Of a stretch of DNA of 64,000 bases, positions 8,222-34,429 are shown in pieces. The translations under genes and the position numbers were made by a program. Under the pieces are notes generated by a model, which worked only from the letters and a program-made list of their open reading frames with translations, was not told where the DNA came from and did not search any database. The stretch's first letter is position 1, and each line of letters starts with the position of its first letter. Origin of the DNA: Eutreptiella sp. 'Long Island Sound 2002' (lineage: Eukaryota; Protista; Euglenida); assembly GCA_964036045.1 (NCBI GenBank), contig OZ038378.1, positions 56,296,001 to 56,360,000 on the forward strand, written 5' to 3'.

Positions 8222-9950
8222 TCAGTCCCAACCTTGGGTACTCCGTCCCAACTCCTCTTCCTCATCAAGCATTTCCAAGGACGAGTCACTACGCACCTCT
8301 TCTGGGCCCTCACTGGCACTGTCAACAGAATTGAAATCATCTACCACCGGTATAGCAGCAGGCATGGGGTGTAGGGCGGGGGGTTTGGGGGGGGGGGGGG
8401 TCTCGGGGAGGGGAGGGGGGGCTGGGGGGACGACCACCAGCACACCGCGCGCTGGGGGTTTGGCGGGTGGTTTTGGAGCGTTACCACCGGCTGTGTTCAT
8501 ACTCTGGTAGTGTGCACTTCGCTGCCTCTGATCGTTTCACACTGTATGCATTCAGAAAATCCTCCGGACCATTGGGTACTTTAGTCTTGGCAATTAGACA
8601 CCGTAGGCTATGCCGAACAAGGCTCAAAAATTGCCGCTGTGCAACCCTTGTATGCGACAACAATCCCAGAAATTGTATGCGGGGGGCTTCATCAAGACGT
8701 TTGACCACATACATATCCTCTTCCAGACCAGCAATGGGGAACCGGCCATGTGATATGTTTTGAATCAACAAACGCACGTGCTTTTTGTACTTGTCCATAG
8801 ACTTCTGCGTCGGGACACCCTCGCATTTTTTCTCTGCTGGAAGTGTGGGGGGGAGAGTTAAAAAAATATTGGTTGTCTGCTGCACTGACTGGGCATTACC
8901 AACCTCCTTTGACCTCATGAGTAGGCGACTAAGCATTGCTTTGCACTCATCCTCAGAAAACAGGCAACCAAGTGCCCGGGTGTGCCAGGCGGACCAGAAA
9001 AGCAGTGCTACAGTATTGGTACGCAGGTATTCAGTGCTCAGCCACTTTTCAGAACGTATGACATTCATCATCAAGACAGTACTCATTCCAATGCATTCTT
9101 TTGCAGCTGCACTGGAATGCAGAGAGCGACCGTTCTAGTTACATTCACGCACAAAAACCCCTAGTGCGAGGAGTGTTGGGCAGTACGAGTATAACAGGGC
9201 CTTCAGGGCTAACAGACATTTCAGACCCAGTCTTTGGGCATCAGAGAACTCAGCAAGATTACTCATAAGGAACTGGGCGGTACTATTAAGCGGTGCTTTG
9301 TTAGCAGCTGTAGCCTGGAAGAAACCAACAATGGTTTTTTCCATGTGACGCAGTTTGACTTTCATGGGCACCACAGCTCCTGCCTTCAGGTCCCGACCCT
9401 GCTCAAGAAATTTAATAATAGGGGCAAATGCCGTATAGGTTATTTCCACGGAATACTGATATGGGTGCCGGACACCGTAAAGCAACGGGTGTCCCAACAG
9501 GAAGTGGTCTACGTGCCAGGGGGCATAGCTTGCTCGAGCGACATTTTCAGGAGTGCGTAAAAGACCTTCATGTCAAACAGAAATGGCACAATCCGTCTCG
9601 TCTTCACCTGCAAGCATTCTAGCCCCCTGGCAAACTCCAACGTGACTTCCGCATTTCGGGTGTGATAACAAAAAGGGCCTGCAGTTGAGGGATACCATAG
9701 CATTGCCAGCATAGTCCAGAGGTGCACGAACCCAGATCCGCACAATAGGCCCATCTAAGACTGTACTTCTTTGCAACAACAACCCAACAAAGCGAACAAG
9801 GTAGTCAACAACCCCGGGTATACTTTGTGCAACAGCATTTGTTTTTATCAAAAGGGCCAGTTCACAAAGTGCCAAGGGCCACTGTGGGCCAAGTTTGATG
9901 TAAGATACAGATTTCGGCTAGGCCAGGGTGTGCATACGGGCTGCAGCTCA
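8222..9950 (-). pseudogene. Decayed transposase-like ORF, C-terminal part
   Basis: Frame-broken pieces 9573-9875, 9509-9754, 9135-9497, 8481-9086 and 8222-8500, with motifs VPFLFDMKVFYALLKM and LLYGVRHPY. Shares atgctgttgcacaa.gtat (AVAQxI) with the N-terminal piece at 45651-46244. Family assignment is uncertain. Confidence 0.4.
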
Positions 9951-9989: not shown

Positions 9990-10979
9990 TCATGTCATTG
10001 GAATTTCCCACTCATTCGGATCCCAGTGCGTTTTGTGGCGTTTTGGTAGCGGTTGCAACGGGACTTCCCACAAAGTGGGGTCCCAATGTTCGCGCGGCCG
10101 CTTCCGTATCACGTACATTGTCTGTCGGGCTGGTCGTGTTGTTTGCCAGTAGTGTGTTGTCTTATCTTTGCAGGCGTCGTGGTACCACTGTGTCATGTTT
10201 GTCAGGTATTTCTGCTGGCGCCACATGTAGGTTGCCTGTCGTTGGTACAGGTCAAGTAGTTTCTGGGTGCCAGCACTCGATCTCCGGTATCGGTCGCTGA
10301 TCAGCAGCAGCAGTTCTGCATCTTCATACCATAGCCCTGTGTCATGTTTTGCCTGATCATACCGTTGCCTACGTATTTGGCACAAGTGTGCGTGTGTGTC
10401 CTTCAGTTGTTGCGCTTGCATCTGTTCCTCGACTAGCTTGGTGACGAGCCTGTGGTAGTCTGTTTTAGCCGTCAGTGTGTTGGTGTAGCACATGTGCAGG
10501 GTGCGTAGGTGTTGCCTTGCCACCGCATCGGCGTGTGCTCTGTGGTATATGTCGTGTGCTTGCTGTGCGTGTTCTTGTGCCAACCTGTCTGCTGTCGTAC
10601 TGTACTGTTTCCATCGCTGTGTGTCAACGCTGAGACGCTGACATTTCTTGGTGTGTTCGTCTTGTGCTGTGATAGTTGCTCGTGTTGCAAACGATGCCAC
10701 TGCCTCATCGTCGCCTGCGCCGCGCGCATCACGTAACCATTGGTCGGGGTCGATGGCCTCCTCCGTCGCGACCTCGGTCTTACGTTTGGGTTTCGTGCCG
10801 CACCACATGGGCGCCCCGACGTGGTTCCGTAGGTTTTGTGGCGTTTCACGCGGCGGAAGTGCCTGAGCGACGTATTTGGTTAGCCACAGGGGTGACGGTG
10901 GTTGTTGTGGCGTAGGGTCGGCGTACTTTCGTCTTAGATTTTGGACGGGCTGCATCATGTGAAACTGGAACAGGCCCAC
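9990..10979 (-). CDS. 329-aa C-terminal extension ORF of the LINE (Q/H/R-rich, helical)
   Basis: Open frame directly 3' of the RNase H and Cys-rich segments, same strand and composition; no known domain recognised. Confidence 0.5.
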   Translation of the reverse strand: MGLFQFHMMQPVQNLRRKYADPTPQQPPSPLWLTKYVAQALPPRETPQNLRNHVGAPMWCGTKPKRKTEVATEEAIDPDQWLRDARGAGDDEAVASFATRATITAQDEHTKKCQRLSVDTQRWKQYSTTADRLAQEHAQQAHDIYHRAHADAVARQHLRTLHMCYTNTLTAKTDYHRLVTKLVEEQMQAQQLKDTHAHLCQIRRQRYDQAKHDTGLWYEDAELLLLISDRYRRSSAGTQKLLDLYQRQATYMWRQQKYLTNMTQWYHDACKDKTTHYWQTTRPARQTMYVIRKRPREHWDPTLWEVPLQPLPKRHKTHWDPNEWEIPMT

Positions 10980-11084
10980 CTCTGTCCGTAGTTTATGCCG
11001 TTCTGTAGTGGGTATAGCGTCGATGAGAGAAAGTGGTACGAGCAGTCTGGCACAGAGCCATAGCTCTTGGCTGTTGGCCGTTCG

Positions 11085-11396
11085 CTACCATTGGTACGTG
11101 TATCGGGCCCAATCAGTCCAGCTCTTGCACCACAAGTCCCAGAAATCGCTCCAGGTGGGACAGTAAGCCAGTCTCGACTGCACTGATGCTCCGTGTTGTT
11201 GGCCACACTGGGAGCAGAGGGTGGGTGTTCGTCCCCAGGGGGCACCCACTCCCCACCAACGCACCTGCCCCCACAGCCAGGGTGTCCACGCGTTTCGTCT
11301 GTAATGCTTCATAGGGAGCCAGCTCACCCAGTGTACCTCTAGTGTTTGTTTTTGTCTACGCACTTGCATGATCCATGCCTTGGCAGGCGTGGGCAT
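11085..11396 (-). pseudogene. LINE C-terminal Trp-rich / Cys-His zinc-binding-like segment
   Basis: CSQCGQQHGASVQSRLAYCP just downstream of RNase H, the usual position of the LINE C-terminal zinc motif. Confidence 0.5.
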
Positions 11397-11429
11397 GATT
11401 TGTCCTGTGATGACAATATCATCGGGTTG

Positions 11430-11850
11430 TGGTTGTTAGGAGTCCATGGGCAGGTTGTCGCCTATATTGGCAAGGACGTCGGAGTCCTGTATATCCTGGT
11501 AGTCTTTATACGTGGTGGCTTGTTCTATATTACGGTGTCCCGGTGTCCATCGTATCGTCGGTCGTTTCGAGGTGGAGTTGAGGTACCCTATGTAGCGGTA
11601 GTCGTGGTCGTTGACCACTCCTTTGCGTTTTATAGGTGTGGCTTTCACCACACTCTGGTTGTCAAGTATAATGTCGTCTCCAGGTTTAGCCAGTTCGGAG
11701 GCCAAGGCGCAGGCGATCGTCTCGGCCCGATACACCTATTGAGGCCCGTGCACCCGGAAGGCCGCGCGGTAGGTCCCGTTGTAAAAGCCACCTCCTGCGC
11801 GTCCGTGTCGTTTCCACCCGTCTGTGTACCACCGGGTGGTGGTGGGTTCT
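11430..11850 (-). pseudogene. RNase H domain of the LINE (one in-frame stop)
   Basis: WYTDGW...AGGG...GPQ*VYRAETIA...IILDNQSVV...IRWTPGH...SDVLAN contains the D-E-D-D catalytic pattern. Confidence 0.85.
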
Positions 11851-12604: not shown

Positions 12605-13618
12605 CTAGTGGTACACTTCAATTTTGTCCTTATTGAAGCGTAGCCCCATTGTGTAGGCCACGTCGTGGAGTGTATCTAATGTGTGTAGCAGTGCTTCCTT
12701 TGTGGGTGCACGCACAGCTATGTCGTCAACGAACACGTATAGTTGGGCTCCCGGGCATCGCTCTTTGGTTTCGCGTAGGAGTATGTTGTAGTGTAGTAAA
12801 AATAGTGTCGGGGAGAGGGGGCACCCCTCCTTCATACCCCTGGTGGGGCGTATGGGTAGGTCCTTTCCGTGTAGGGTCAGTACAGCCGGTGTATGATGGT
12901 ATATTTCCCCCAACATCCGTATGATGTTTTCTGGTGCCGCTACCTCTTTGACGATCCCAGTCAGCATGGGTCGGGGGACTGATGGGAAAGCTTTGGCCAC
13001 ATCGAGTAGTGCCACGTACCATTCCTCTGTGTGTAGGTCGTTTAACAGTTTTGTGGCTAACGTTGTGGCGTTTCGGCCCTGTGTGGCGCCGTGTTGTATG
13101 TCTAGTAGTCCCGGGGTCATGGCCCTCGATATACGCGTCAGGAGGAGGAGTGTGAGTATGCTATATATGGCTGTGGATACGTAGATCGGTCGGTAGTTTC
13201 TTGGGTCTTGGGGGTCTTTCTTTTTATATGTGAGCACTACCGTGGACTGCAGCCAAGCCACTGGGATGTTCTGTCCGTTCCAGACTGCAATGATTGCCTG
13301 GTACAGTTGTTGTTGTATGTGGTTCGGTAGGTGCCGGAGCAGGTGCGGGGGGACACCGGCAGGCCCGGCTGATTTATTCTTTGGTGCCCGAAGGCACCGC
13401 ACGTACTCCTCGTATGTGGGGGTTGTGGTGTTCCATGTGTAGTGCCGTACATGCTTCTGTATAAGTCGTGGGCACGCGTCCTCGTCGTATGTTGGGTCGC
13501 CCGCAAAGTGGTTGAGGACGTACTGTGCCCCTCCTATCGGGGGTTGTGGTGTGTCTTGGGCTATAAGTCCGGTGCGCCATCTTTTGACCATTTTATAGAA
13601 GTAGCCTGATCTGTGCAC
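12605..13618 (-). pseudogene. Non-LTR reverse transcriptase domain
   Basis: KSAGPAGVP, KKKDPQDPRNYRPI, LLDVAKAFPSV, RGMKEGCPLSPTLF, VFVDDI, GLRFNKDK; flanked by in-frame stops. Confidence 0.95.
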
Positions 13619-13894: not shown

Positions 13895-15136
13895 CTATGG
13901 TTTCTTGCGAGGTGGGTCGGGGGCCCCTATCCTCCAGCGGACCCCAAGTAGGACCAAAGCATGATCCGATATGGGCATTTGTATGGTGTCATAGTAAGTC
14001 CAGGGTATGTTGGGTATTTGTTGCCTAATCAAAATGGCGTCCAGGCGACGTGGACGTCCATGCCTAGGTATGCGGATATAGTACTGCCGGGGTTCCGGAG
14101 GCTGGCTACTCGCATGCAATGGGTTGAGGAATACTCGATTGGCCAAGTCTTCTTGCCATGGGCGTGTCGGGTTAGGAGACCAAATGTCATCATTGTAGTC
14201 CCCCATTACGATGTCGTAAGGTCCAAGGGACTGCAGGAATAGGTCTACCTCCTGCTTGTCCTGGCGGTTGAATTTGGAGTATACACACGCTATGGTGCGG
14301 CGGGGGCTGTTGGGGAGCTGGATCGTGACGGCCCCTGCTACGCCGTTTGGTGAGTATAACGTTTCGAGAATGTGAGGGACCACAGTGTTGCGGACAATGA
14401 ATGCTACCCGTGGTTCGGTCCTAGACGCAGCGTAGCACTTGTAGTCGTTGTTGAGTGCTGTTGTGGCTGCCTCAGGCTTAGGGAAACACGGGTTATATTC
14501 CTGGATGCCGCAAAGGTCGATACGGCACTGGCTGATTAGGTGGAGGGTATTGGCCCAGCGTTGAAGGCTGACGGAGCCTTGTGCTCCTTGTATGTTCCAG
14601 GAGGCCAGTTTCATGTCGTGGTCCTTTGCGGTGGTTGTGTCATCTAGGCTGTCATACCGTCGATTTGTGTTGACCACCAGGTGTTGTGCATATTCCTCTA
14701 TGTCGAGCAACGGAACGGGGGATCCCAGCACATCCCGGCACCCGCGCCGGAGCTGGTATATCCTGCGCTGTCCGGGGTTGGGGTGTACGTCTCCGCATTG
14801 GAGGACCCAGTTGTTGTTGTACCGTGTGTTGTGCGGGCTGGTCACCGTGGTGTTGGACACAGGTGCATGGTAGTAGCGGCTTGGCACCCCCGTGATAGGG
14901 GCGGTAAGAAACAGGCGACATAGAGGAGGAGCAGGCCGGGCCGCCATGTACGGTAACTGTGGAGGTTGAGGCCCCGTGAGTAACCGTGTCGGTGCCGTAG
15001 CGGCGGGGCGTGTTGCCTGCGGATTCTCCGGTTCACAGGGAGCAGATATACCAGCCCCTCTGTATACGTAGTGGGTGCCAGAAGTACGAGGAGGGCCGTA
15101 ATGGAGATACAGGGCAGAACGGAACAGGCACCTCAC
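13895..15136 (-). pseudogene. ORF with a 2A-like motif followed by an apurinic-type (APE/EEP) endonuclease
   Basis: LQCGDVHPNPGQ at 14768-14791, then KLASWNIQG, CGIQE, VMGDYND, RLDAIL and ISDHALV (canonical EEP motifs, ~13905-14620). Confidence 0.92.
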
Positions 15137-15699
15137 TTTTTCCCTTTGCCATGCGGGTTTTTTGACGGCCCCTTTCCTTTCCCCTTGCGTTTGGTGTCGG
15201 CGGTGAAAGCAGCCATACCGTCTACTTGTTGGCTGGTTTGTGGTGACGTAGGTGTTGCCTTCTTCTTTTTTGGTGGTGGCGTGGTTTTTGTGGGGTTTTT
15301 TTGTGGTGTTTTGTTGTGGGCCTTGGTTTTCTGCGCTTGGTGTGGCTGTCGTGCGTGTGTTGTGGTGGGATTTGCTGGTTTGCCTGGTTGTTGGTCGGGG
15401 GGTTCATCCGTGTCCATGGTGGCCAAGCGTGGCTGGAGGTCCGTTGGTGTGTCGTCGTTGTTGGTATGGCCGAGTTCGTTCAGGATGGCCTCATCCCAGT
15501 CTGCCACGTCGATGGGTTCAGGCTCTGCGAGCAGCTGCTTTTCCCTGTTGATTTCTTTGATGACGCGTTGAGTCGTCATGTCTGCGCGCAGCTGCTTCCC
15601 TGCCTTTATTCGTCTCCGGAAGGCCGCGTCGTCGCCCGTTTCTTGTGGCATTTTTTGTGAGAGCATCTGATCGATGCGCTCTGTCACTTTGTGCGTCCG

Positions 15700-15935
15700 T
15701 GTCATCGTCTCCTAGCGTTATGTGGAAGTATTCACCGGCTGCCACTCCGATGTATTGTCCGGCACTGAGGGCCACTGCCGTGGCCTGTTGGTATTGGAGC
15801 GAGGCGTAGGTGCAGCCTGCATCGCTCCACATGTTGGGTTCTGGTTTCCAGCTGCTCCAGCATCCAAAGAAGGATGCCACGACTTTCGCCGTATCGTCTC
15901 CTGCGCCCTACCTCCACCCTACGAACACCGTCGTG
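15700..15935 (-). pseudogene. Probable RRM domain (ORF1-like), one in-frame stop
   Basis: In the frame continuing the 1293-aa ORF: TTVFVGWR*GAGDDTAKVVASFFGCW...AGCTYASLQYQQATAVALSAG...YFHITLG. Fits the RNP2/helix/RNP1/helix/beta4 pattern by eye. Confidence 0.55.
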
Positions 15936-16135
15936 GCGTCGTTTCTGGTCGGTTTTGGTGGCCGCTTGATGTCCCTGGAGCGGCTTGTGGACTGTGTCCA
16001 ATTGTTGCGGTTGAGGATGACGTTGGTCATCACGTGGACCAGTTTGTAGCTTTTCATGCCCTTCAGTAGCTGGGCAATCAAGCGTCGGTCTGTGTCTGGG
16101 TGGAATTGTATCAGTAGACGATATGAGTCCACTGG

Positions 16136-19100
16136 TCAGAAACCCTTGAGGAAGGATGCGATGCTCCTTCCTAGCTCTAGTTCTTCCTTGTCCAGGTCGT
16201 CCAGGATTTCCTGTACGGACGTTATTCTATCTTCTTTATGTTCCGTGTATTGTTGTCTCAGTATGTATAGGCTCTCGTAGTCTGTTTCGGTGAGCCGGTA
16301 GGGTCCGGGGTTGCGGGCGTTTTCCTCCTCTTGCTTTATGGTCTGTAGTGCTGGTGTCAGACGAGGCAGCAGTTGCATGGGCAGCTGTAGTCTCCATGCG
16401 TGTGACCCACTTTGCCCTGCGGTGTGCTCTGAGGCGCACTTCCACCGGAATGTGTTGCGTGGGTCCTTGCTTGCCATGGTGGATGCGACGTCAGGCTGGT
16501 GGCCGTTGATTCGCTTCATAAACGCGTCCCGCGTCCTAATGCCAGTTTCTGGTGGGCACTCCACTACGATTGTTGTTTTGGCCCGTTCTGGTTGTAGTGT
16601 GTCTGTGCGGTCCTCCAGTCCCACTTGTATGGGTGTGCCCTTCGTGAGTGCGTAAGTTTTGTGCGTGGGCTCGTGTCCCATCTTTATGGTGTTGTCCGGG
16701 TGGAGAACCATGATGGGCTTGGGTTGTAGGTGGTCGACCAGGGTATCGTGTTCTGGGGACCACTTCCGTACAGGGAATTTGTCGAACTGGTATACGCCCC
16801 TGACATAGCGGGCCAGCTTACGCAGAGGGGCGCGGTGGAGGCAGTCCATGTGGTAGGTCTGCAGTGCGGTGGTGTCCTGTCGGTCTGCCTCGTATGCCAG
16901 GATCAGTTCCTTGGCCCCTGGATCGCCGAGTGCCCGTAGGACTTGGTCGACCCGTTCGTCCTCGCTTCCGCCACATTCCGTTTGTATGGCACCGCGTTGC
17001 ATCCGTCGGTCATGGTTGCGGCGGGTCCCGGTCGCCTGTGGTAGTAGTAGGTATGTCTTGTTCCGGATGTATGGGTTCCCTTGATGGTCGGCTTCCGTAT
17101 GGATTGTGTACTGTTGTGCCTCGGCCATCTCGGATACTGTGTGTATACCTTCAGAGTCTGCCTCGTGCCTCACCGTCATGACGCCGCGCAGTTTGTGTTG
17201 CGCAAACAGGGGGAGTTGGTAGGTGTTCCTTTCATACCATACCCCTTCTTGTGTTTGTCTCCTTATGTGTTCCGTGGTTACTGTACGGTTTGGGTGCTTT
17301 GTTAAGTATGCTTTCAACCTGGTTTGTGCGTCGTACACAACTGAAGCTTTCAATGTGTCTTGTTCTGCTGTTGTCATTGGTTGTTGTGACGTGCCTGTGT
17401 TGAGTTTTACGAGTTCTTCTATGAGCTGATATTCCGTTGGTGTGTGTATGGGTAGTTTGTCCAGGGGGTTGTTGCCGTCTTCGTGGAATGTGTATGCCTG
17501 TGTATCCTCTTGGGGGGGAGGAGGGGCGTAACTAAACCCTTCTGTGTGGTGGTCGGGTGGTGTACCAGGTTCCCCGTTCCGGGGGGGTTCCCGTTCGGTG
17601 GTATCCTCTGATGGGGGGTGTGACGTTGACTCAAGGGCGTCCGCGGGATTTTCCCTTGCGTCCCCTTGGTCGTGCACATCAGTATGCAGTCCGGACGTAT
17701 TCCTTTCGTAGTTTTCTGTCAGGGTGCGCACCAGGCCATGGGGTGGAGCGTTGCTGTCTGGGCCTGGGTTTGATTGCACATCGCCATCCTGCGTGGCATC
17801 CGGAACCCATTGGGTGCGTTGTGGGTAGGCTACATCCGGGGTACCGGATGAGATCATATCGTGGCGCACATCCGGTGGGTGGTCAGCTGGTACCCAATCG
17901 GTGATGTCATACTCCAGGAGCAGGTCGTGTTGCAAGGGTTGGACCAGGAAGAGCCAGTAGCGTATGGATATGGCCCTTTGGAAACCTTCTCTCGTGCCCG
18001 TGAGGACATGCAGTCTGTGTCTTGCGATGTGGCAGTAGGGGAGGTCAGTTCTAAGGTGTACCTCCCACAGTTGGCCTGTTGTGCTGGTAAGCCTCCTCCA
18101 TAAGTTGTATGCCAACTGCGACGGCGGGTTGAGATTCGCACAGTAATCGGTGTATGTGAGGAGTCGGTTGTTGTAGATTTGTATGTGGAAATATGCATAT
18201 GTTGGGTCATCCGGGGGTGGGGGGGGTATCCTTGGATGCAGCGTGCTGCGGCACAGTGGGCATCTCAGCAGTCTTGGGTCATTGGCGCAGTCCTGACACA
18301 GCCTGTGCCTGGGGTCGCAACTGAGGTGTGTATCCGCGGGGCTGTCCAAGCATACGGGGCCGTCCTCTGGGACCTGTTCACCGTCATCCGTGTTTCCCGC
18401 GTGTTTGTGTACGTCGTCATCGGGCTGGTGGGGTGGTGGTGTCGTCAGCAAGAGCGGCAGCAGAGCGTTGTGGACCTCATTCTCCGTGTCCCCCTGTGGT
18501 GTGGTTTGGGCTGCTCGTTCCACTGTGGGTGTAGCTCGCCCCGGGTTGGGCTCCGTGTCCCCGTCCTGAGTTGGGTCGTGGACCCAGCTCGTTGGTCTTG
18601 GGTAGGGGCGCCTGCGTAGACGTTCTGTTCGGCGAATCTTTCTTTGTGGTGAGTCATCCGTGTCATGCTCAGTGGTGTTCTCATATGTCCACTTCGGGCG
18701 TGGGTTTCCTTGGTTTCCGGGGGGGTGCTGTTCGTCCCAGTGGGACGTGCTCTGGTGTCTTTTGGATGTAGGTGGATGGGAAGGTTCGCCTTCCGCTTTT
18801 CGTTTGTGGTGGTGGTGCGCTAGCGTTGGCGATTGGTGTTCCTGGTATGCCATGTGCAAGTGGTCTGTGCGCCGCCGTTTGTGCCCGGCTGGTGTGTTTT
18901 CCGTGGTGCGTTTGCGCAGCATCCTGGGCGTTTGGTACGTAAGTGGAGTGTCTGGGTTGTATTGTGTGCGTTTCGCAGGGGGTGCTAATGGGCTGGGCCC
19001 GGAGTTGGGTTCCACATCTCCGTCACTGGTGACGTCGCGTATCCATCTGTCCGGGGTGTCTACCGTGGTCGGTCGGGGGCCCGTCGTGTGTGGTGTTGGC

Positions 19101-20017
19101 GTATGGTAGGTTTGCGAGGTAGTGGCACGTATGGCCCCTTGCCAGGATCCTTGTCGTGGGTACAGGGGGTCTGGAGACTTTACGTTGTAGAGTCGCCGTG
19201 GTACTAAGTCTGGGGTGTCCGGTTGGTGTATGGCAAAATACTTGCACGTGGTGCAGCGGAAGTACACAAAGTCGGCCATGTTGCATCGGGGGCACACTAC
19301 ATCGATGGCTGTGGTCATATTTAATCCTAACGGTGAGCTGTGTTTTTGTGTTTTCATAGACAACTCGGATGTGTCCAAGGGGGTTGGGCGCGGTGTGCCT
19401 GGGCCATGTGCCCCGCGCACTGGAGATGCTTCTGGTGATGGTACCTCCAAAGTGCCATGTGGAGACGACGATTCTGCACGTGGTGCGGGTGTGTTGTGTT
19501 TTAAGGGGGGGGTGGATGCTCGTCGCTTTTTCTGCAGTGCCTCCGTGAGTGCCTGTGCTGCGTATTTGTATAGTTTAGCGGGGTAGTGGGGGTTGGAGGC
19601 CGTTTCGATTTCACTTGCAAGCCGGGTGACCATCTCTCTGTGCTGGGGGGGGATGTCGTTATCCGCGGTCTGTGCATCTACGGGTCCCGGGTTCTTTTCA
19701 ACATCTCCGTCGGCTGTGCGGTCCCGCACTACCCTAGTGAGGGCGGGGTGGAGTCGTCGTTTGTTGCAGGGTATCCGCCTAGATGGTGGATCATAGGGCA
19801 GTCCCTTTCCCATGGGGGGGGGGGGGTGCTGTCCCGGGGGGAAGGGGGGCTCCTCACGATCTTGTAGCAAACACACGAGCAAATATGGTCCAGAAAGTGC
19901 GTGTACGTTGGTCACTGTCACATATGCCTGTCCGGTCCGATGCCCGTCAGTTGGGACCTGTGCGGCCATGTCTGTGCTGGGTGCGGCGGACGAGTGGCCC
20001 TCGGTTCGTCCGTGCAT
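16136..20017 (-). CDS. 1293-aa LINE polyprotein segment with four 2A-like motifs, a CxxC-x9-CxxC zinc ribbon and a RING-like domain
   Basis: Uninterrupted ORF. Motifs: DVEKNPGP 19682-19705, DVEPNSGP 18995-19018, DTEPNPGR 18536-18559, DVQSNPGP 17759-17782; CPRC-x9-CTTC ~19243-19296; GPVC...CDPRHRLCQDC...CPLC ~18243-18360. Confidence 0.8.
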   Translation of the reverse strand: MHGRTEGHSSAAPSTDMAAQVPTDGHRTGQAYVTVTNVHALSGPYLLVCLLQDREEPPFPPGQHPPPPMGKGLPYDPPSRRIPCNKRRLHPALTRVVRDRTADGDVEKNPGPVDAQTADNDIPPQHREMVTRLASEIETASNPHYPAKLYKYAAQALTEALQKKRRASTPPLKHNTPAPRAESSSPHGTLEVPSPEASPVRGAHGPGTPRPTPLDTSELSMKTQKHSSPLGLNMTTAIDVVCPRCNMADFVYFRCTTCKYFAIHQPDTPDLVPRRLYNVKSPDPLYPRQGSWQGAIRATTSQTYHTPTPHTTGPRPTTVDTPDRWIRDVTSDGDVEPNSGPSPLAPPAKRTQYNPDTPLTYQTPRMLRKRTTENTPAGHKRRRTDHLHMAYQEHQSPTLAHHHHKRKAEGEPSHPPTSKRHQSTSHWDEQHPPGNQGNPRPKWTYENTTEHDTDDSPQRKIRRTERLRRRPYPRPTSWVHDPTQDGDTEPNPGRATPTVERAAQTTPQGDTENEVHNALLPLLLTTPPPHQPDDDVHKHAGNTDDGEQVPEDGPVCLDSPADTHLSCDPRHRLCQDCANDPRLLRCPLCRSTLHPRIPPPPPDDPTYAYFHIQIYNNRLLTYTDYCANLNPPSQLAYNLWRRLTSTTGQLWEVHLRTDLPYCHIARHRLHVLTGTREGFQRAISIRYWLFLVQPLQHDLLLEYDITDWVPADHPPDVRHDMISSGTPDVAYPQRTQWVPDATQDGDVQSNPGPDSNAPPHGLVRTLTENYERNTSGLHTDVHDQGDARENPADALESTSHPPSEDTTEREPPRNGEPGTPPDHHTEGFSYAPPPPQEDTQAYTFHEDGNNPLDKLPIHTPTEYQLIEELVKLNTGTSQQPMTTAEQDTLKASVVYDAQTRLKAYLTKHPNRTVTTEHIRRQTQEGVWYERNTYQLPLFAQHKLRGVMTVRHEADSEGIHTVSEMAEAQQYTIHTEADHQGNPYIRNKTYLLLPQATGTRRNHDRRMQRGAIQTECGGSEDERVDQVLRALGDPGAKELILAYEADRQDTTALQTYHMDCLHRAPLRKLARYVRGVYQFDKFPVRKWSPEHDTLVDHLQPKPIMVLHPDNTIKMGHEPTHKTYALTKGTPIQVGLEDRTDTLQPERAKTTIVVECPPETGIRTRDAFMKRINGHQPDVASTMASKDPRNTFRWKCASEHTAGQSGSHAWRLQLPMQLLPRLTPALQTIKQEEENARNPGPYRLTETDYESLYILRQQYTEHKEDRITSVQEILDDLDKEELELGRSIASFLKGF

Positions 20018-20480
20018 GCCGATGGCCGGGTTGAGGCCATATATGACGTTCCTGTCTGCTTGTCGTGTGCTGCCTGTCGCTGGTCAGCCAACTGAGCATC
20101 ACCGGGGGCAACAAGCGCGACCACACCAGTGTGGATAGTGGGAGGGTAGGCGGTGGCCAAGAGCCCGGCCGAGTAGGCGCCGGTGGTACCAGCCATCCAC
20201 ATGCATGATTGGAAGGCAGGCACGCTCTCACGGCCTACCGCCTTCTCAGTCCGTTGCCTGTCTATCTGGCCCTGTGCTGTCTGAGCCTGCGCCGTCAGCG
20301 GCGGGCGATGGGCCGTCGGGTGGCCCGTGCGTGCTGTTGATGGCCGGGTTAGGGCCATATATGATGTTCCTGTCTGGCTGTCCTGTGCTGCCTGTCGCTG
20401 GTCAGCACAATGAGCATCACCGGGGGCAAAAAATTCGCCCACACCAGTGTGCCCGGCAAAGTAAAATGTGGCAGGGTAGG
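19990..20480. repeat. Diverged ~315-bp tandem duplication inside the LINE
   Basis: Two copies translating on the minus strand as HTGVGEFFAPGDAHCADQRQAAQDSQTGTSYMALTRPS and HTGVVALVAPGDAQLADQRQAAHDKQTGTSYMASTRPS. Confidence 0.85.
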
Positions 20481-21179
20481 CGGTGGCCAAGGTCCCAGCC
20501 GAGTGGGTGCGAGCGGCACCAGTCAATTGCGTGCATGTCTGAGGAGCAAAATCCTTACGGCCGGCCAGCCACCGTGCTGTCGGGTCGTCCGTACGCGGGT
20601 CGACGCGGTCGTCCGCTCCAGGTTGCCCATTGCGGCTGCTCACTACAAAGAAGGACGCAAGACAGATGTTGGGAAGGTCAACAAGTTCTCCCGTTGTTCC
20701 CTTCATGCACATGCATGCGCATACCAGCACGTCAGTAGACGCGGAATCTCGTTGGTCGGGGGGAGGAACGGTGGGGATGTTGGGGATGACCGTCCCCAGT
20801 TCCCCTTTGTGGGTCGTGGGTCGGCGCTTTCTCCCTCGCGGCTGCCGGGGGCGTGCCTATTATTCTTGCTGTGCGGCCACCACGTCCCAGCTCCAGTGAA
20901 GAGGAAGACCCCAGCCTGTCCCCACCCGGATGGTTCCGGTCCCTGTTCCGGTGCCTGTTCCGCGTGTGCATCGTGCCACGGTGCCCTTTCCGCGTGGATC
21001 TGGGGGGGTCCGGGCTAGTGCACGGGGTGCTGGGGGTCTGGTGCGTCCGGTGTGTAGTACAGTTGCTAGTGCTGTTGTAGGTGTCCCGTTTCCAGCGCCG
21101 GCTCGGGGGCCGGGTAGCCACCCCTGTCCGTTGGTTGGTGACGGGGGGCGTGCGGGTCCGCCAGTGGTCGTGTGCGATC

Positions 21180-22718
21180 TCACGAGAGCCACATGTCCAG
21201 GTATCCCACTGCCGGTTCGGTGTCTGTGCGTCGCTGCATCGGTGGGTCGGTGCGCATGATCTCAAGCGCGGCTGCGTTTTGCTCGCTGAACCTGGCCCAG
21301 GTTCCTGGCCTGTCCTCTGGCAGTCTGTGCTGTCCATGGCGGTCGACGACTGCCCCATACTGCACGTGAGGTTCGTGCTGCATCTGCGGTACGCATAGTG
21401 GCTCACTGTGGTACGCCAGCTCTGCCGCTGTGTGTTCCATGTGAGTGGCCGCCTGCTGTGGAGGAGGCTGTCGGTTCACGTCCCTGTGTCCGTGTTGGAG
21501 GGCAGGGACTGCACATGGTACCTCCGGGTTGTGTGGGTTGCGGTAGAAACGCAGCGGTTCTGCCACAGGGGTTGGGGGGTAGGGGGGTGGGTGTTGAGGC
21601 TGATGTCCGGGTTCATGCAGGAGGACCTGCTGTTCCCCTTGGCGCGTGTCGATGCTCACGCAGTAGCGACTGCGTGCCTGTGGTTCCGCGTCGCCTTGTG
21701 ACAGCTCTGCTTTGATGCGGGTCTGGTCACTGTGTCTGCCAGCGCTGCGCTGTGGTGCTGAGGCCTCGGCTGTCACGGTTTGCTGTGGTTGCTCGATCGC
21801 CCGGCAGATTCCTGCTAAAGAGTCCGCAAGGGACGTCATGGCCCGCAGGGCTTGGGTGAGTTCGCCCTTGGAGCTGCGCTTCCGGGACTTTTTCGGACGA
21901 CTGCAGCTGTCACTGTCACTGTCGTTGGTGCTGTCTCTGTGTGTGTCTCTCCGTGACCTTCTACCTCCTCCCTTCGGAAACACCAGTCGCAACGTCAGGT
22001 GGATGGGTCCGGTTGCGGTCGCAGCCGGGGTCGGGTCCGGGTCTCCGCTGTTCGTCGTGATGGGTCGTGGTACGTGAACAGTGCTGCCCCGGGGCAGGCT
22101 GTGTGTGTGTGTCTCCCCGGTAACGGGGGGTACGTCCAGGAGACAACATCCGAATCGTCCTGGTGCAGGGTACTGAGGCGAGGGCTCCAAAACAGTCCCA
22201 TACCCGGGCATGGTGCATGAGTGACCCCTGGTTTTGCCCTTCGCAGGCCCTTGGCTTAGCGCTCTGCGCGGCTGCCGAGGGCTGGAGACGGTCATGATCC
22301 GGGGACAGGATGTGCCACGTCCCTCTACCTTGTACTGCAGAAAGGCACCTAGCCGACATGCTCTTTCATTCCCTCTTCTACTGTTTTTCGGCCGACGAGA
22401 TTCGTTAACGTCCAGTGCTGTGCTCCGCTTGATCACGCCTGGTTGATCTCCCCAGTGCGCCACGTGATGTTTTCCTCGTGCGGCTGGGTGGGGGTCGGGC
22501 GGGGTTTCCGGGGGGGGTCTGTCATCTGCGTGGTGGTGTTGCACAGTGGCGCGGCATGCGGGGTGGTGCCAGACAGAGATCCCATCCATTGAGTGTGTGA
22601 GCCGCCGTTGGATATGCAACGGGGGCATCGGAACAACTGATTCGCTGTTATTCGCTGGGGGTCTCGGTGCCGCGGGCATATTCAAAAGTTGCTCAGTGCC
22701 TTTGTGGAAGGTCAGCAC
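21180..22718 (-). CDS. 512-aa low-complexity ORF at the 5' end of the LINE, function unknown
   Basis: Long open frame with the same strand bias as the element; no domain recognised; start codon doubtful. Confidence 0.4.
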   Translation of the reverse strand: MLTFHKGTEQLLNMPAAPRPPANNSESVVPMPPLHIQRRLTHSMDGISVWHHPACRATVQHHHADDRPPPETPPDPHPAARGKHHVAHWGDQPGVIKRSTALDVNESRRPKNSRRGNERACRLGAFLQYKVEGRGTSCPRIMTVSSPRQPRRALSQGPAKGKTRGHSCTMPGYGTVLEPSPQYPAPGRFGCCLLDVPPVTGETHTHSLPRGSTVHVPRPITTNSGDPDPTPAATATGPIHLTLRLVFPKGGGRRSRRDTHRDSTNDSDSDSCSRPKKSRKRSSKGELTQALRAMTSLADSLAGICRAIEQPQQTVTAEASAPQRSAGRHSDQTRIKAELSQGDAEPQARSRYCVSIDTRQGEQQVLLHEPGHQPQHPPPYPPTPVAEPLRFYRNPHNPEVPCAVPALQHGHRDVNRQPPPQQAATHMEHTAAELAYHSEPLCVPQMQHEPHVQYGAVVDRHGQHRLPEDRPGTWARFSEQNAAALEIMRTDPPMQRRTDTEPAVGYLDMWLS

Positions 22719-22737
22719 ACCCTCACCCGCTCACGCA

Positions 22738-22880
<143 letters not shown>

Positions 22881-23364
22881 GTTGTTGTTATTGTTGTTGT
22901 TGGGGACGGTATACACGCAGGCCCCGTAGCCCTCTTACCCGGAGGCGCATCATTCCGTTCTGGTAGGACGTCTTGCCGATGGACCTGCGTATGTGGACTG
23001 CGTGTGGCAGAATGCAAAAAAAAATTTGGTAAAAAACAAAAAAAAAAAAACTTTCGTGAAATTGTACCGGCCCTACCCTGCCCTATGATGGATTCATGCA
23101 GGGCAACAACAACACAACAACAACTGCTGATTGCGCATCGCCGGTACTGGTTGCCGCTGTGTGCTGATTGTTTGTGAGGCCACTGATTGCAGTGGCCCTC
23201 GACAGACTCATATATGCCGCTGCCTGCAGCAGCAATGCTGTCGCCGGACTTACCATTTGCCCTTGGCCTTCCCTTTACCTAATGCGTTATGATGTGGCTG
23301 CCATTGGCCTTTTCCCGTCCACTTCGCCTGGTGGTACGTGCGCTGCTGAGACCCTGTGAGACAA

Positions 23365-23862
23365 TTACAGGGCCGGTAGGGATTTTGCATAGGTGGCTGC
23401 GGGTAAGGTCGAGTTTGGGTCATGCACCAGGAGATATGCCACAAACCCTTGTTGCTGGATTCGGGCGTATTGCAGCCCCACATAGGTGTCATCGATACTG
23501 GTGGTTATCAACACCCACAGTACCGGCATGCGCCCTCCCCTGTATGTTGCCATCACTGCTTGCACCTGCGCCCCTTTCCCTATTGCTTGAAAGACTCCTA
23601 TTCTGTGCACCCTTGGCAGCCATTCATTTACTCGTGCCCGGCCCTGTGTCTGGACCTGTATGGATGGTGGTGGGTGCTCCGTTTGAGCTCCCACCAGCAC
23701 TGCCCTGACCCTCCATAGCCAGTGCAGAGGCACTGGTATGTGCTGGACACCTACAAAGAACCCCTGGTGTTGTGGCTGTCTTATGATGGTGTATGGGGAC
23801 ACCAGCGGTGTGAACTGTATGTCCGCTGGGATGACCCCTGTTGCCTGCTGTTGATATGCCAC
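23365..23862 (-). CDS. 165-aa ORF of unknown function, probably TE-derived
   Basis: Open frame with globular-looking composition; no motif recognised. Confidence 0.25.
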   Translation of the reverse strand: MAYQQQATGVIPADIQFTPLVSPYTIIRQPQHQGFFVGVQHIPVPLHWLWRVRAVLVGAQTEHPPPSIQVQTQGRARVNEWLPRVHRIGVFQAIGKGAQVQAVMATYRGGRMPVLWVLITTSIDDTYVGLQYARIQQQGFVAYLLVHDPNSTLPAATYAKSLPAL

Positions 23863-24234
23863 GTGCAGGTCTTCAAGCAGGGGGGGCCATTTACCCGTTT
23901 AAGCATTACTTATAGCAATAAGCACTATTTATTAAGTTATTTGTTTACGCAGCGCATGTTCTTACCCCGCAGACATGCCCCGTCCAGTGGTGCGCGCACC
24001 TTTGGGGCTGCCTTTGGGGGGTCCGGGGCTTTTACCCGGACCTCCGGCCCTCTCTGCTGTTGGCCGGAGGCGTACATTATACAATACTGAGGTTCTTTCA
24101 TTGACGTACTTACATTACTTGATACATACACATCGAAGTCACAACAGCTCCTGGGGGGGATGGCGCCCCCCCTGCTTCCAAAGACGGGTAAAGTGGTAAC
24201 GCCTTCGTTGGCGTTACCCACGGGACGGTCTCGG

Positions 24235-24437
24235 GGGGCCTCCTCCTCCGCCGGTTCTTGGGTGCGGTCGCCCACCAATTGCAAACCAGGGGCCTCCTCC
24301 TCCGCCGGTTCTTGGGTGCGGTCGCCCACCACTTGTAAATCAGGGGCCTCCTCCTCCGCCGGTTCTTGGGTGCGGTCGCCCACCAATTGCAAACCAGGGG
24401 CCTCCTCCTCCGCCGGTTCTAGGGTGCGGTCGCCCAC
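24235..24437. repeat. 54-bp tandem repeat, about 3.7 copies
   Basis: Unit ggggcctcctcctccgccggttcttgggtgcggtcgcccaccaattgcaaacca; encodes VGDRTQEPAEEEAPGLQL on the minus strand. Confidence 0.95.
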
Positions 24438-25357
24438 AATTCTCAAGTTCCTAGGGGAGCGAGAAAGGGGGAGATGAATGGAGAGACCCATTAACCTAGG
24501 GGTGAGCGGGAGGGAGGGAGGGACCCGTGTTCCTAGGGAGACATGAGAGGGAGACACGTGTTGTGCATTTGCTTACCGTTTGTTGTATGTACGTGAGTGG
24601 TTTGTGAAATCTCTTGTTTGTGTGAGCGTGCTCCACCACGTGCTCCACGGCCGCCACCGCGAGGCCCACACTCTGTGACGCCCTCCGGGCGAGTGTGCAC
24701 CTCCGGGCCCTGCCATTGGATGTGCGGGCACAAGTGTGCCGTGTGTTTGTAAGTGTGCCTTTGTCTCTGCATGTTGTATACCCCTGTGTTACTTCCCTTG
24801 TTCTCCACCCTGCCTCTACTTGCCTCAGAGATTTCACCCCACATTTTTCCAGTAGTGCACGCGTATGGTGTTGTGACCCAGTACAAGCGACCACGGGGTC
24901 AAGAGGCTCTAACCTACACCCAAGACCGACGGGGCCCGTTGTCAAAGTTGTCCCGCATTGCATCGCAGGGCAGGACCGGTAGCCCCCCTTGACAACGAAC
25001 CCCTCCAAGCAGGGGGGTGTGATTGAGTAGACCCGTGTACCTACAAAAAACTTTTGTGTAAAATGGAATTACGTTTGCGGGGTGAATCTCTAGGCTAGGG
25101 TGGGGTGTGGGGCTGAAATCTGCCCTTTCTGGTTGGGCTGAAAATGGCCCTGTTTTATGTCACCCCCTTTTTTTTTTATTTTTGTTTCCTGTTTCTGTAC
25201 TCAACTTCTGGTTTGTGTCTAGTTGAAACATGTTCATTTTGTATTCCCTTTGTGTTTGTTGTGTACTTTATTTTTTTCAACAAACCTGTTTCCACCGTAG
25301 GTCCATCGGCTTATCGATTGTCCACCTGTGCAGCGAAGCGGAATGCCCCTCTAGGCA

Positions 25358-25358
25358 G

Positions 25359-25391
<33 letters not shown>

Positions 25392-25695
25392 CACATACAC
25401 GCGCGCGCACACACACACACACCCATACACACCCATACACACCCATACACACAAACACACGCACACACACACACATACACGCACAAACACACACACACAC
25501 ACATACACGCGCGCGCGCTCACACACAGACACACGGATACACACACACACACAGACACACACACACATACACACACACACGCACACACGTATACCAAGGC
25601 TTCCATTCGAATCCTGCTCAAATTGCGAGGTTCAACACGCACACACGTATACACGCGCGCGCACACACACACACAAACACACACACATACACACA
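25358..25695. repeat. Degenerate (CA)n / CA-rich tract
   Basis: Direct observation. Confidence 0.95.
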
Positions 25696-26160
25696 CAATT
25701 TGCGATGCACAGCACAAATGATTGTTGGCTGAGCGAAAAATCCTCGTCAGTTGGTCATTAGACAAGACAATCAGAGCATGTCCGACGCCAATAGGCGCCT
25801 TTCTGCAGGTGCATGAAGAAGGAGATGTTCGGCTGCAGCCCGCCTCAGCGTCAGCCGTGGAAACGGGACATGCTGCACTGCCTTGCCCAGCAGTGCCAGC
25901 TGTCTTGGGGTTAGATAGGCCCTGCCCTGTCCAGCCAAGCCTAGCTCAGCCCAGCCCGGGCCCGCTCGCTCGGTTCTCACGAGCCCAGCCCAGCCCAACC
26001 CAGCTCAGCCCAGCCCAAGCCCGCCGCTGCATCTCTTCGCTTGCACCCGGTTTAGCCCCCCGAGGAGTGTGGTTCACGGAGTTTTTGACCTGCCGATTAA
26101 GTTTCACTTACAGACACACACAACTGGCTGCAGTGCACCGTAACCGGTGCACTACACACA
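25690..26160. repeat. ~450-bp direct repeat, copy 1 (pseudo-LTR-like)
   Basis: Highly similar to 29643-30085; ends in the hairpin AGTGCACCG-taac-CGGTGCACT (26132-26153) followed by (CA)n. Confidence 0.95.
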
Positions 26161-29100
26161 CACATTAAGCAGCTGTTGGCAGGGGCATGTAAGGTCACTG
26201 CAGCTTGCTTCACGCAGGCCTTGAATGCATGCCATGTCATCATTCCACGCTCCATTGATACCATCTATGCTGAGGTCCGGGGGCAGCACCCATGATGGGT
26301 ATCTCTTGCCCTCCTGGACGGCATGTTTGTGGAGCCACATGTGCACCTTGGACAGTACGACACACCGCTTTGCAGGCATATGATGCACCACACAATGCAC
26401 ACATTTTACCATGGCTTGCACTGTGTGTGGGCTGGTTCTGACAACCCTCATCACTTTCTTGATGGCTTGTTTTTCCCATGCTTTGAGTGTTGTGGATCTC
26501 AGGATAAACCGCATGACTCTGAGGATGGCAGATTTTTGAGGCGGCGTGACATTAGGCACCTGGACAATCGCACCATGAACTAGAGGGATATTGAGTTCCG
26601 CAACCAGTTCCGTGAGTTCCGCGCGCATGGCTTTTGCACGTGCGTGGTCTGCATCGTGTTGAGCCTGTTTCATCTCTTTGATAAGTTGTAGTACCTTCTG
26701 ATTTAGCCAGTTGTTTGGCCGCTCCGTGCCCTGTTGGGGGATTCCTCGAGGTACATCGTTTACCGCCCATCTTTTCAGCACAAACCACCAGTGTCTCTCT
26801 CAAATTCTTGTCCACTACCTATCCTGCACGTATTCCAGCACTGCTATTCCCCAAGCTGCAGAGTTAGCGTGCTGCATGTGCGTGTGAAGCGAGGAGATGT
26901 CCACTGCCGCAGCAACGTCTGCCATATGCTTCCACAACCGTTGAATGGGAGCCATGTGTGTCTACCCTACATACAATATTCCTAGGGTGATATGATACAC
27001 AACATATATAACAAATCCTGTCACACTGACCCTCCAGTGGTGAACAAAAGAGAGATGACGTAACTCTTGTAGTGCCTTGTGAGTGGCATACGGCAGGTAG
27101 GTGTTCCGCTGTTGCATGAGTGTAGCCCACTTGCCCAAGTTTTTACTCTCCAATGCTATGGACATCTGTAGCGTTAGCGCACTGCGAATGCTCATAGCCC
27201 GCGTGATCTGGAGCAGCTAGAAGTGGCTTCACCCGTATTCCTGGAATAACAAATGCAGCCGCAAACATTGCAACGCGTCCAGGTGAGTATACACAGTACT
27301 GTTAGCGAACACGGACCAACTTTTACCTGCATGCCCCAAGTATCTCCATGTTGTCATCTCACGGTGTTAGAGAAAATGATTTTGGTCTGACTCCTGAAAC
27401 CAAAACCAGTGGTGAATCAGGGTGGTCGGCAAGTTCAAGGTGTCGTGGTGTGTCTCCTGCCTTGCAGCCCGAGCATCTATCCATTGGGTAACCATGTGTG
27501 GACTGGTGTTGGGGTTGCTGTGAATATATGTATCACATAGGGGATGATGGTTGGCAGTGACCAAACCTGCTAGGCTGTACCCAGGGCAAGTGCGTGCAAT
27601 AGTGTGAAGAACCCTCCGCTGAATGTGTAATGGTATTGCTGAAAAGGCGGGGGAGCGCACCTCTTCTTGCCGAAACGTGAAAGTGCCTAAAGGTAAGTTG
27701 CCTGTGTTTTGAGATAGCATATCTTCGTCACGTTGGGTGGAAACACTTGTCAGTCGCTCAAGGCGGTGCTGTAGGTTGGTCAAGCTGTCATTTGAGTGAC
27801 CATAGTGCACGGGGGAATACGTGTAATCACGAATCAAGTTGGCTGGGTGAACTGACTGTCCTAACACGTGGGAGGCTAAGCCTAATTTCTCCTGTACAAA
27901 TCTGACAGACAGCAACGTATCCAGGGTTTGGTCCTGCATAACATGAGTGTGATCATTTGGCACTGGTGGGGAGGGGGCAGCAGAACGGCGGAACAGCATC
28001 GCCCCCCCGGGTGGATCTAAGATCCCTCCGGAGGTGCTGTTAAAAAAACCTCGTGGGGGGATCTGGCTTCCGTGCAAAACTGCAGATAGGCCCTCGTGCC
28101 AGGCCTCCGTAACACGCTGTCGTTTGAGCCGTCGAATGGTAGTACACATTTCTGCTCCGCAATGTTCTTGGCCCCAGCCCTCAAGTCGCTCCATCCGGGC
28201 ACCATTCCAGTCATCCAGAATAAGCTTTATGGCGTGCTCGCTCCACTGGCTGTGCTCCGTTGGTGGAAGCTCTTTCCAGAATTCCAAGGATCTGGGAGTT
28301 GCGGATTTCGAGCGGGTGGCTCGGCTCCGGTGCGTGCTTTCAGTCTCTGCAAATGCATCTGCACCTGGCGTCTTGGAGGACGGTGGAGTCTTTGGTGGAA
28401 CACTGTGAGTTGGTGGTTGCGGTGAGGTCGGCGTTGGTGGTGTGCTCGCTCGAGAGGACGCTCCATGGCGTCGCTTGGCGGCCTATCCCGGTGAGCCACA
28501 GTCGTCTTCATCGTCCGGTTCGTCTCCCTGGCCAGCTCGTTTGCCCGCATAGCCGCCCCTGCCCATGTGGGCATCTCCCCTGTCCGCAATTTTCTGTGAG
28601 ATCTCCGTTTGCTATATCTCAGCTATGTATTTGTCGAACTCCGTTCGTGGCAGGCCCCCGTGGCAAGTTGCTTGACGGTACTGAATTCCTTTTCTAGCCA
28701 CATGTCAAATGCCGACACCCGCAGTACTCCATGCAACTTCTCTTCGATAGTGGGCTTCCATGTGTTCATGTTACTGATGTCACATTGCAGGGACGTTACA
28801 GATTTTTCGACCTCCTTAGCGGTATGGAGTGCTGGAGTAACAACTTCTGGTTGCCATTTAATGAGTGACACCAATTGTCCATCCATCCCGTCAACTGTTC
28901 CGCGCAATTCCTCGACATTCCCCAGAGATTTCTTAATCGATGCGATTTCGTTCTTCATATCTCTGATGTCCCCCGTGTGCTCTTGAGTCAAAGCCGTACC
29001 TCGCTTCATGCATTTTGAGCTTGTGTGACCCATGAATCCACGGTAGCAGCAGAAGTTTGACATGCGTGCCACGTCAGCCTAGGTTGCTGGAAATAGTACT

Positions 29101-29570: not shown

Positions 29571-29642
29571 GTCCGTGAGGTCAAAGTTCAGTGTAACCAC
29601 GTCAATTGCTCAACACTTAGCTCGATTGGCAAGAGCAGTTCA

Positions 29643-30081: not shown

Positions 30082-30085
<4 letters not shown>
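29643..30085. repeat. ~450-bp direct repeat, copy 2
   Basis: Matches 25690-26160; hairpin at 30062-30083, then (CA)n to ~30190. Confidence 0.95.
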
Positions 30086-30149
<64 letters not shown>

Positions 30150-34302: not shown

Positions 34303-34429
34303 CTATCCTCAATACTGGGATCCATGGAGAAAGTGGGCCTGAGAAATGAGGAGGGAAGTATGATGTCCTGTAGCAGGCACCCTCAAAGTGTATCACCATA
34401 TCAATCCACCGAGAAAAAGAGTAGATGCG

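Follow-up and report, generated by a model that had tools for sequence, protein, structure and literature searches.

We analysed a window of 64,000 nucleotides (nt) from Eutreptiella sp. 'Long Island Sound 2002' (contig OZ038378.1, positions 56,296,001 to 56,360,000; coordinates below are those of the window), which holds a dead copy of a long interspersed nuclear element (LINE) family with two open reading frames (ORFs), the second of them encoding an APE endonuclease, a reverse transcriptase (RT) and an RNase H-like domain. ORF1 of this family is about 2,830 codons long and contains four virus-like 2A (StopGo) motifs which, judging from their conservation, are under selection, three of them canonical and one a fixed variant. 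Natural StopGo is thought to be rare outside viruses. We consider it probable (about 0.7) that these four motifs cause the predicted ORF1 product to be cut co-translationally into five proteins.

A preliminary description of this DNA had listed five octamers on its minus strand (19682-19705, 18995-19018, 18536-18559, 17759-17782 and 14768-14791, here called sites 1 to 5), and all of them are present with the upstream residues quoted there. The motifs are not chance occurrences, because the pattern D.T.DGD[VIT][EQ].N[PS]G[PR] is matched 4 times and the pattern GD[VIT][EQH].N[PS]G 5 times in the window, against no match to either in 60 order-3 Markov resamples. Over 17 codons, sites 1 to 4 share 53-63% of their DNA but only 24-47% of third positions, and their 90-nt flanks are 21-34% identical; the likeness therefore lies at the protein level, in agreement with the protein-level conservation amid unrelated flanks that had been proposed. 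The assignment of these four motifs to a conserved virus-like 2A class also holds. In the window copy only site 1 retains an intact canonical core, and sites 2, 3 (in its last residue) and 4 have decayed from canonical forms, as had been suspected for a dead element.

The family was surveyed through predicted sibling proteins and contigs from 4 runs. All 167 proteins were aligned for the site counts, each motif was assigned to its best-matching site before counting, and the protein of the window itself (P0038) was left out of every count; as the copies are related and hence not independent, the counts stand without p-values. The core (D/G/C/N)(V/I)ExNPGP is present at site 1 in 24 of 32 sibling proteins, at site 2 in 27 of 35 and at site 4 in 32 of 37. 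Contig DNA, which is free of the bias of protein searches, restores the Pro codons of sites 2 and 3 at full listed depth in all 4 runs (19003 A>G and 18537 C>G). Two of the four one-base reversions predicted earlier are thus seen in DNA and a third, at site 4, in sibling proteins, whereas the CAG/CCG change expected at site 5 is not, the siblings having His (10) or Asp (2) there and never Pro. Site 3 has Thr at position 13 in 30/30 siblings (DTEPNPGP in 23/30, NPGP in 24/30), and site 5 has His at position 14 together with His or Asp at position 19 in 12/12, so that the departures at site 5 (E to H, P to H) and at position 13 of site 3 are family-wide. With no copy ending in Pro among 12 siblings (NPGH in most), site 5 cannot be read as a canonical 2A that has decayed.

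More distant copies give the same picture. A HMMER search returned 133 matches, reaching relatives of 28-49% identity, and in the 27 site-copies with less than 70% flank identity the 11 key motif positions match the family at 285 of 297 residues, compared with 1108 of 1902 in the flanks. The motifs remain near-invariant while their flanks fall to 36-70% identity, and they persist in relatives of 31-49% identity: site 4 is intact in the far relatives P0281 and P0287 and kept with a final Cys (NPGC) in P0243, and P0160 retains sites 2 and 3, the Thr included. Another far relative, P0208, has two canonical W-type 2As 29 amino acids (aa) apart at site 4, and therefore the number of sites varies within the lineage. 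P0277, from the short-contig sample, carries a canonical 2A just before a shortened ORF1 core. This conservation argues for a function on the host ribosome.

Several further observations concern these motifs. P0277 and P0299, 284-aa internally deleted relatives of the ORF1 core with a 2A at residue ~30, were found on three small contigs and possibly represent a non-autonomous derivative, and P0053 and P0014 are without blocks that include whole sites. We do not count the additional NPGP at 16301-16324 as a 2A, because its core departs from the 2A pattern and the motif, constant in close copies, is lost in the far relatives P0173, P0184 and P0234. In the 5' part of ORF1 (44479-44517, minus strand) a Leu-rich stretch, 'LLLLHNGD.GVEPCSPP', which P0020 and P0075 share, looks like a class A 2A that has degenerated; it was not counted. 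Finally, P0293, from a 1,957-nt contig, has two 2A motifs with a Dam-like methyltransferase (PF05869, E 8.3e-6) between them; over 28 aa the cassette of the second is 79% identical to site 3 together with the residues upstream of it, which hints at 2A cassettes shared or exchanged between different elements.

ORF1 runs from the ATG at 45600 to the TGA at 15135-15133, in two parts of ~533 and 2,303 codons. The tblastn alignment of sibling P0075 covers 45642 to 44002 and resumes at 22046 with one residue missing at the break, so an insertion of ~22 kb splits the window ORF1. The full ORF1 is tiled by the open sibling frames P0075, P0020, P0028 (2,194 aa) and P0026/P0048, and no single sibling spans all of it. 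Among the 20 sibling proteins that reach its end, 17 stop at the same residue (P0055 is one more), and the remaining three continue into ORF2, each from a different breakpoint, as expected of mutations. Nine sibling proteins begin ORF2 at the junction, where its frame (-1 to ORF1) has a GTG overlapping the ORF1 stop and a Met six codons later.

This layout departs from the preliminary description, which saw one minus-strand frame almost continuous from 20017 through APE and RT and took it for a giant ORF that replaces the ORF1/ORF2 arrangement and yields six or more proteins. That frame is open only from 20083 to 16139, with nine stops beyond (16138, 15910, 15520, 15493, 15406, 13897, 13645, 12607 and 12400), and the true ORF1 starts at 45600. 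It looked continuous because of copy-specific indels near 15688, 15120 and ~14890; contigs from the 4 runs confirm that the extra base near 15688 is specific to the window copy, and past it the true ORF1 changes frame and ends in ...GKGKK followed by the TGA. The family hence has a four-site ORF1 and a conventional separate ORF2, and the stop shared by 17/20 siblings, an outcome that the description had itself named as contradicting it, also sets the family apart from the single-ORF layout of 2A-bearing LINEs of the L1Tc/Ingi kind, which have no separate ORF1.

An APE endonuclease followed by a non-LTR-type RT in the same ORF (Pfam and PDB matches), both downstream of the motifs as previously described, places the element among the LINEs. 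The best PDB matches of the RT are L1 ORF2p (E 4e-29) and R2 (E 9e-21), with group II (E 7e-4) and retroviral RTs far behind. ORF2 (~1,700 aa) follows the plan of the 37%-identical relative P0010, with leader, APE, RT, RNase H-like domain and C-terminal region, although the RNase H-like domain of the window's own copy had no Pfam match. Its leader is 32% identical over 122 columns to that of P0010, which ends in DVHRNPGP; both P0010 and another relative, P0013, keep the final Pro. The siblings are interspersed on many different contigs, and summed contig depth, which is not copy number, is higher over ORF2 than over ORF1 in 4/4 runs, as 5' truncation would produce. The family was also found in an estuary metagenome. 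A metagenome scan with an ORF2 alignment detected one unrelated LINE locus (L070) and no intact relative as DNA. In the window copy both ORFs contain stops and frameshifts, no poly(A) or simple-repeat tail was seen in the window sequence at the 3' end of the element, Rfam gave no match in the window, and an automated search for target-site duplications returned a 6-mer different from the 5-mer noted by eye (Table 1). The family has an RNase H-like domain as well as a separate ORF1, and by the latter it differs from Ingi elements, which have no ORF1 (PMC3894237).

Cutting at the four sites would give products of ~1,320, 229, 153, 259 (or 217) and ~875 aa, and the sites fall between, not inside, the predicted domains. 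In product 1 the di-Gly end of the ubiquitin-like domain is present in 3/3 siblings that cover it. Product 2 matched no Pfam family; its Cys motif is kept in the divergent P0121 and P0126, and P0109 and P0160 retain the second pair of it. The K/R clusters of product 3 may serve as nuclear localization signals (NLS). For product 4, the below-cut-off matches to zf-C3HC4_3 (7.7e-4 in P0044, 9e-4 in P0122, 1.9e-3 in P0243) were accompanied by Atlas leads to RING clusters at 0.84, which count as a lead only. This product exists in a long form (siblings P0026 and P0028) and a form shorter by 42 aa (P0031 and P0048). A 319-residue AlphaFold model of product 5 (predicted local distance difference test score, pLDDT, 59.6) contains three beta-alpha-beta ferredoxin-like units, whose best fold matches are ferredoxin/RRM folds at Z 5-6, none reaching Z >= 8, a likeness that may reflect only a common fold; Atlas leads point to RRM at 0.75-0.78. 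The ORF1 core profile found no sequence match in the PDB, and no solved ORF1 protein (ORF1p) stood out in fold searches with the product 5 model. Product 5 is likely the RNA-binding ORF1p proper.

Sites 1 to 4 match the D, T, D and G of the DLTxDG upstream class, the 'motif 4' class defined by Li et al. 2026, members of which reached almost 100% skipping in reticulocyte lysate (PMC12846837). The resemblance to iflavirus 2As noted earlier stands as a likeness to viral WxxDLTxDGDVESNPGP sites, but the class is widespread in chordate and arthropod viruses and not specific to iflaviruses (PMC12846837). Viral WQKDPTQDG and DPTQDG sites are filed in it (PMC12846837 Dataset S1), while DATQDG, DVTSDG and DRTADG are absent among the viral motif-4 rows, and none of 69 viral loci with the motif encodes a relative of the RT or APE. 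In a cell screen, GDVHPNPGP peptides skipped in 2/7 cases (PMC13405545). Asp, Gln or Trp at position 19 left more than 70% activity in F2A (PMC12846837), so site 5 may keep partial activity, although it departs from the core at two positions.

A number of points weigh against efficient cutting of ORF1. Among 48 distinct viral sites of the class, 43 have Leu at position 7, where sites 1 to 4 have Arg/His, Val, Pro and Ala; none of the 48 has Thr at position 13; and changes upstream of the core can abolish 2A activity (PMC12846837). In the cell screen, GDTExNPGP peptides skipped in 2/5 cases, gave fall-off only in 1 and showed no skipping in 2 (PMC13405545), and a highly active 2A was reported in only 43/580 retroelement contigs (bioRxiv 2026.09.24.754024). 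Some divergent copies have degenerate motifs (P0127, P0210, P0227), the siblings are related copies and the close ones are ~90% alike throughout, and some candidates were picked by words containing the motifs, which favours copies that keep them. Moreover, the ubiquitin-like, RING and RRM labels are all below curated cut-offs.

Taking all this together, we propose that ribosomal skipping of the Gly-Pro bond would be efficient at sites 1, 2 and 4, and perhaps partial at site 3. Five proteins would result: an N-terminal one of ~1,320 aa that contains the ubiquitin-like domain, then the zinc-ribbon protein (229 aa), the basic peptide (153 aa), the RING-like protein (259 aa) and the RRM-like ORF1p (~875 aa). 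The element could in this way carry accessory proteins that are not fused to the one coating its RNA. ORF2 would likely be made separately and at low level by re-initiation just past the ORF1 stop, at the AUG six codons after the overlapping GUG; in the window family, little or no skipping is likely at the ORF2 leader motif, DVHPNPGH. The motifs could instead be kept as ribosome-stalling or fall-off signals that ration downstream products, in which case ORF1 would give nested partial products and little of its last module. We regard this as unlikely, even though protein levels fell with most of the 2A-like peptides from retrotransposons that were tested (in 70% of cases for ORF1p and 59% for ORF2p; bioRxiv 2026.06.17.732966), some picornaviral 2As terminate translation (PMC11512398) and the non-canonical Thr of site 3 is found in 30/30 copies: the likely RNA-binding ORF1p comes last and should be needed in quantity (PMC3894237), which would make four strong fall-off sites ahead of it costly, and the canonical cores of sites 1, 2 and 4 belong to a class whose activity in vitro was nearly complete (PMC12846837). 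Compatible with serial skipping in ORF1, yet in itself quite improbable, is a low-frequency programmed -1 frameshift at the A-rich end of ORF1 that would join both ORFs, RT included, in a gag-pol-like manner. In its favour, the -1 frame of ORF2 stays open through the ORF1 stop, which G_AAA_AAG precedes, and three siblings read through; against it, this heptamer is no perfect X_XXY_YYZ site, the three fused proteins shift at three different places, as mutations would, and an AUG of its own is available to ORF2, whose start is hydrophobic and signal-like.

A single ORF from the 5' end through the RT, with five active sites and six or more proteins, is largely refuted and in our view very improbable. 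The motifs it invoked exist, the ORF2 frame coincides with the upstream frame in the window copy, three siblings are fused, and site 5 need not be dead, given that some non-Pro residues at position 19 keep activity (PMC12846837); against this, the coincidence of frames comes from the copy-specific indels, and the common stop, the nine separate ORF2 starts and the absence of Pro at site 5 (0/12) tell otherwise. Chance retention of the motifs, as inactive relics or linkers, in a family that expanded recently would be compatible with close copies that are ~90% alike everywhere and whose agreement alone says little, but we consider it extremely improbable, because the motifs stay near-invariant where flanks have diverged and persist in the far relatives, while the NPGP at 16301-16324, which serves as a control, is shared by close copies and missing from P0173, P0184 and P0234.

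Beyond serial cutting, we put forward as a tentative idea, possible but rather doubtful, that ORF1 would be a virus-style polyprotein delivering accessory proteins aimed at the host ubiquitin system (the ubiquitin-like domain and the RING E3-like protein) beside the RNA-coating protein, separated at the four StopGo sites and possibly also at the di-Gly end, through deubiquitinases of the host, and that the W..D.T.DG cassette would be mobile, swapped and duplicated between unrelated retrotransposons of the same hosts to add cargo genes. P0208, with its doubled site, and P0293, with its cassette beside the methyltransferase, are the cases in point.

The insertion that interrupts ORF1 contains no match to the LINE family except a flank repeat at 40887-41147. 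One of its ORFs (31367-33130, minus strand) shows the RT-like motifs PMGGSFS and FRDNI, which we take to be Penelope-like and for which HMM searches gave no match; another (33574-34443, plus strand) is GIY-YIG-like (E 5.9e-4), and 26152-26799 looks like a related fragment. It also includes long inverted and direct repeat pairs (36479-37481 with 42079-43838; 40184-40881 with 41366-42078) and a short TTAGGG-type array at 41269-41305. The flanks of the LINE (45651-46247 and below 9904, both minus strand) read like one interrupted, decayed coding repeat with no family match.

Table 1. Features of the LINE copy and its insertion in the window.
Feature	Position	Strand	Evidence or remark
ORF1 5' part, ATG 45600, ~533 codons: short internal repeat, low-complexity region, first half of ubiquitin-like domain	44002..45600	-	tblastn: P0075 residues 94-639, 82% identity; P0028 residues 1-42, 90%
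Inserted other repeats, ~22 kb, inside ubiquitin-like domain of ORF1	22047..44001	.	P0075 stops at residue 639 (44002), resumes at 641 (22046)
ORF1 3' part, ~2,300 codons, copy-specific stops and frameshifts	15133..22046	-	Tiled by P0028 (2,194 aa open), P0020, P0026, P0048
Ubiquitin-like domain, second half, ends HLTLR...KGG (first half 44002-44142)	21966..22046	-	Pfam ubiquitin, weak, below cut-off: E 0.016 (P0020), 0.028 (P0075), 0.1 (P0028)
2A site 1, VVRDRTADG-DVEKNPGP (siblings mostly DIEKNPGP)	19682..19732	-	Canonical in 24/32 sibling proteins
Predicted product 2, 229 aa, CxxC-x10-CxxC zinc-ribbon-like motif at 19244-19297	18998..19684	-	Module length; Cys motif
2A site 2, WIRDVTSDG-DVEPNSGP; Ser copy-specific, family NPGP	18995..19045	-	19003 A>G in 4 runs; canonical in 27/35
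Predicted product 3, 153 aa, basic, several NLS-like K/R clusters	18539..18997	-	28 K/R vs 16 D/E in sibling P0031
2A site 3, WVHDPTQDG-DTEPNPGR; Arg copy-specific, Thr at position 13 family-wide	18536..18586	-	18537 C>G in 4 runs; 30 siblings
Predicted product 4, 259 aa (217 in shorter variant), RING-like zinc finger at 18251-18358	17762..18538	-	Pfam zf-C3HC4_3, below cut-off
2A site 4, WVPDATQDG-DVQSNPGP; family DVEPNPGP	17759..17809	-	Canonical in 32/37 siblings
Predicted product 5, ~875 aa: helical region, three ferredoxin/RRM-like domains (~16580-15770), basic tail	15136..17761	-	AlphaFold, fold search
ORF1 stop TGA 15135-15133, overlapped by GTG of ORF2 frame (-1 to ORF1)	15133..15136	-	Window translation; 17/20 sibling ends
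ORF2 leader, ~115-120 aa, hydrophobic start, ends in 2A-like site 5 WVLQCG-DVHPNPGQ (family NPGH)	14768..15136	-	9 sibling starts; 0/12 end in Pro
APE endonuclease	13961..14605	-	PF03372, E 2.6e-9
Reverse transcriptase (YVFVDD)	12611..13225	-	PF00078, E 1.7e-24
RNase H-like domain (WYTDG, YRAE, LDN motifs)	11535..11834	-	PF00075, E 8.3e-4 in relative P0010, below cut-off; motifs in siblings
ORF2 C-terminal part, CxxC motif 11193-11219, stop TGA 9992-9990	9990..11534	-	tblastn P0007 to 10224; ORF list
Possible 5-bp target-site duplication, tentative element ends	9904..9908, partner 45660-45664	-	By eye; 5-bp match may be chance

Known 2A-bearing LINEs resemble the window family in part. Odon et al. 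2013 described elements, most of them without ORF1, that bear one 2A close to the ORF2 start, as well as one case in ORF1p (PMC3708506). As in these elements, a 2A-like motif ends the ORF2 leader just before APE, and Crack-15_BF, whose activity is very low, shares the E-to-H core of site 5 (PMC3708506); the window family differs from them in its very long ORF1, in four more motifs of another upstream class and in an ORF2 motif without the final Pro. The family also puts to the test the proposal that a 2A in ORF2 takes over the role of ORF1 in limiting RT (PMC3894237): it possesses an ORF1, and the Pro of its ORF2 motif is lost, unlike in the relatives P0010 and P0013. In L2A-1_NVe (PMC3708506) and in L1-type ORF1p of a tick and a limpet (bioRxiv 10.64898/2026.06.17.732966) a 2A likewise stands directly ahead of an RRM-containing ORF1p core; there the peptide precedes a coiled-coil/RRM/C-terminal-domain ORF1p and no serial sites are described in the available portions, whereas four sites partition ~2,830 aa with ubiquitin-like, zinc-ribbon and RING-like modules in the window family. 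Up to three 2As per eukaryotic gene and six per viral gene have been reported (Rao et al. 2025; PMC12338488), and 581 2A peptides on 580 retroelement contigs (bioRxiv 10.64898/2026.09.24.754024). Our literature searches, outside whose scope lay the supplements of the latter work, which could hold multi-site cases, found no LINE with four 2A sites in ORF1.

There is also a likeness in arrangement to RNA-virus polyproteins with several 2As, such as those of Paavivirinae, with up to six in DERSV (PMC11512398), and of the iflaviruses PnPV and EoPV, with two (PMC8623073), which together with the motif 4 class have in common with ORF1 serial sites, 150-260-aa peptides between them and the W..D.T.DG upstream signature. 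The window family is in contrast a cellular retrotransposon; its sites have no Leu at position 7 and carry Pro or Lys at position 15, for which viral sites most often have Ser, and site 3 has Thr at position 13. It supplies testable peptides, among them a naturally fixed DTExNPGP variant and non-Leu motif-4 variants, and, if our reading is correct, a cellular mobile element would be using the full polyprotein strategy of these viruses to carry accessory genes.

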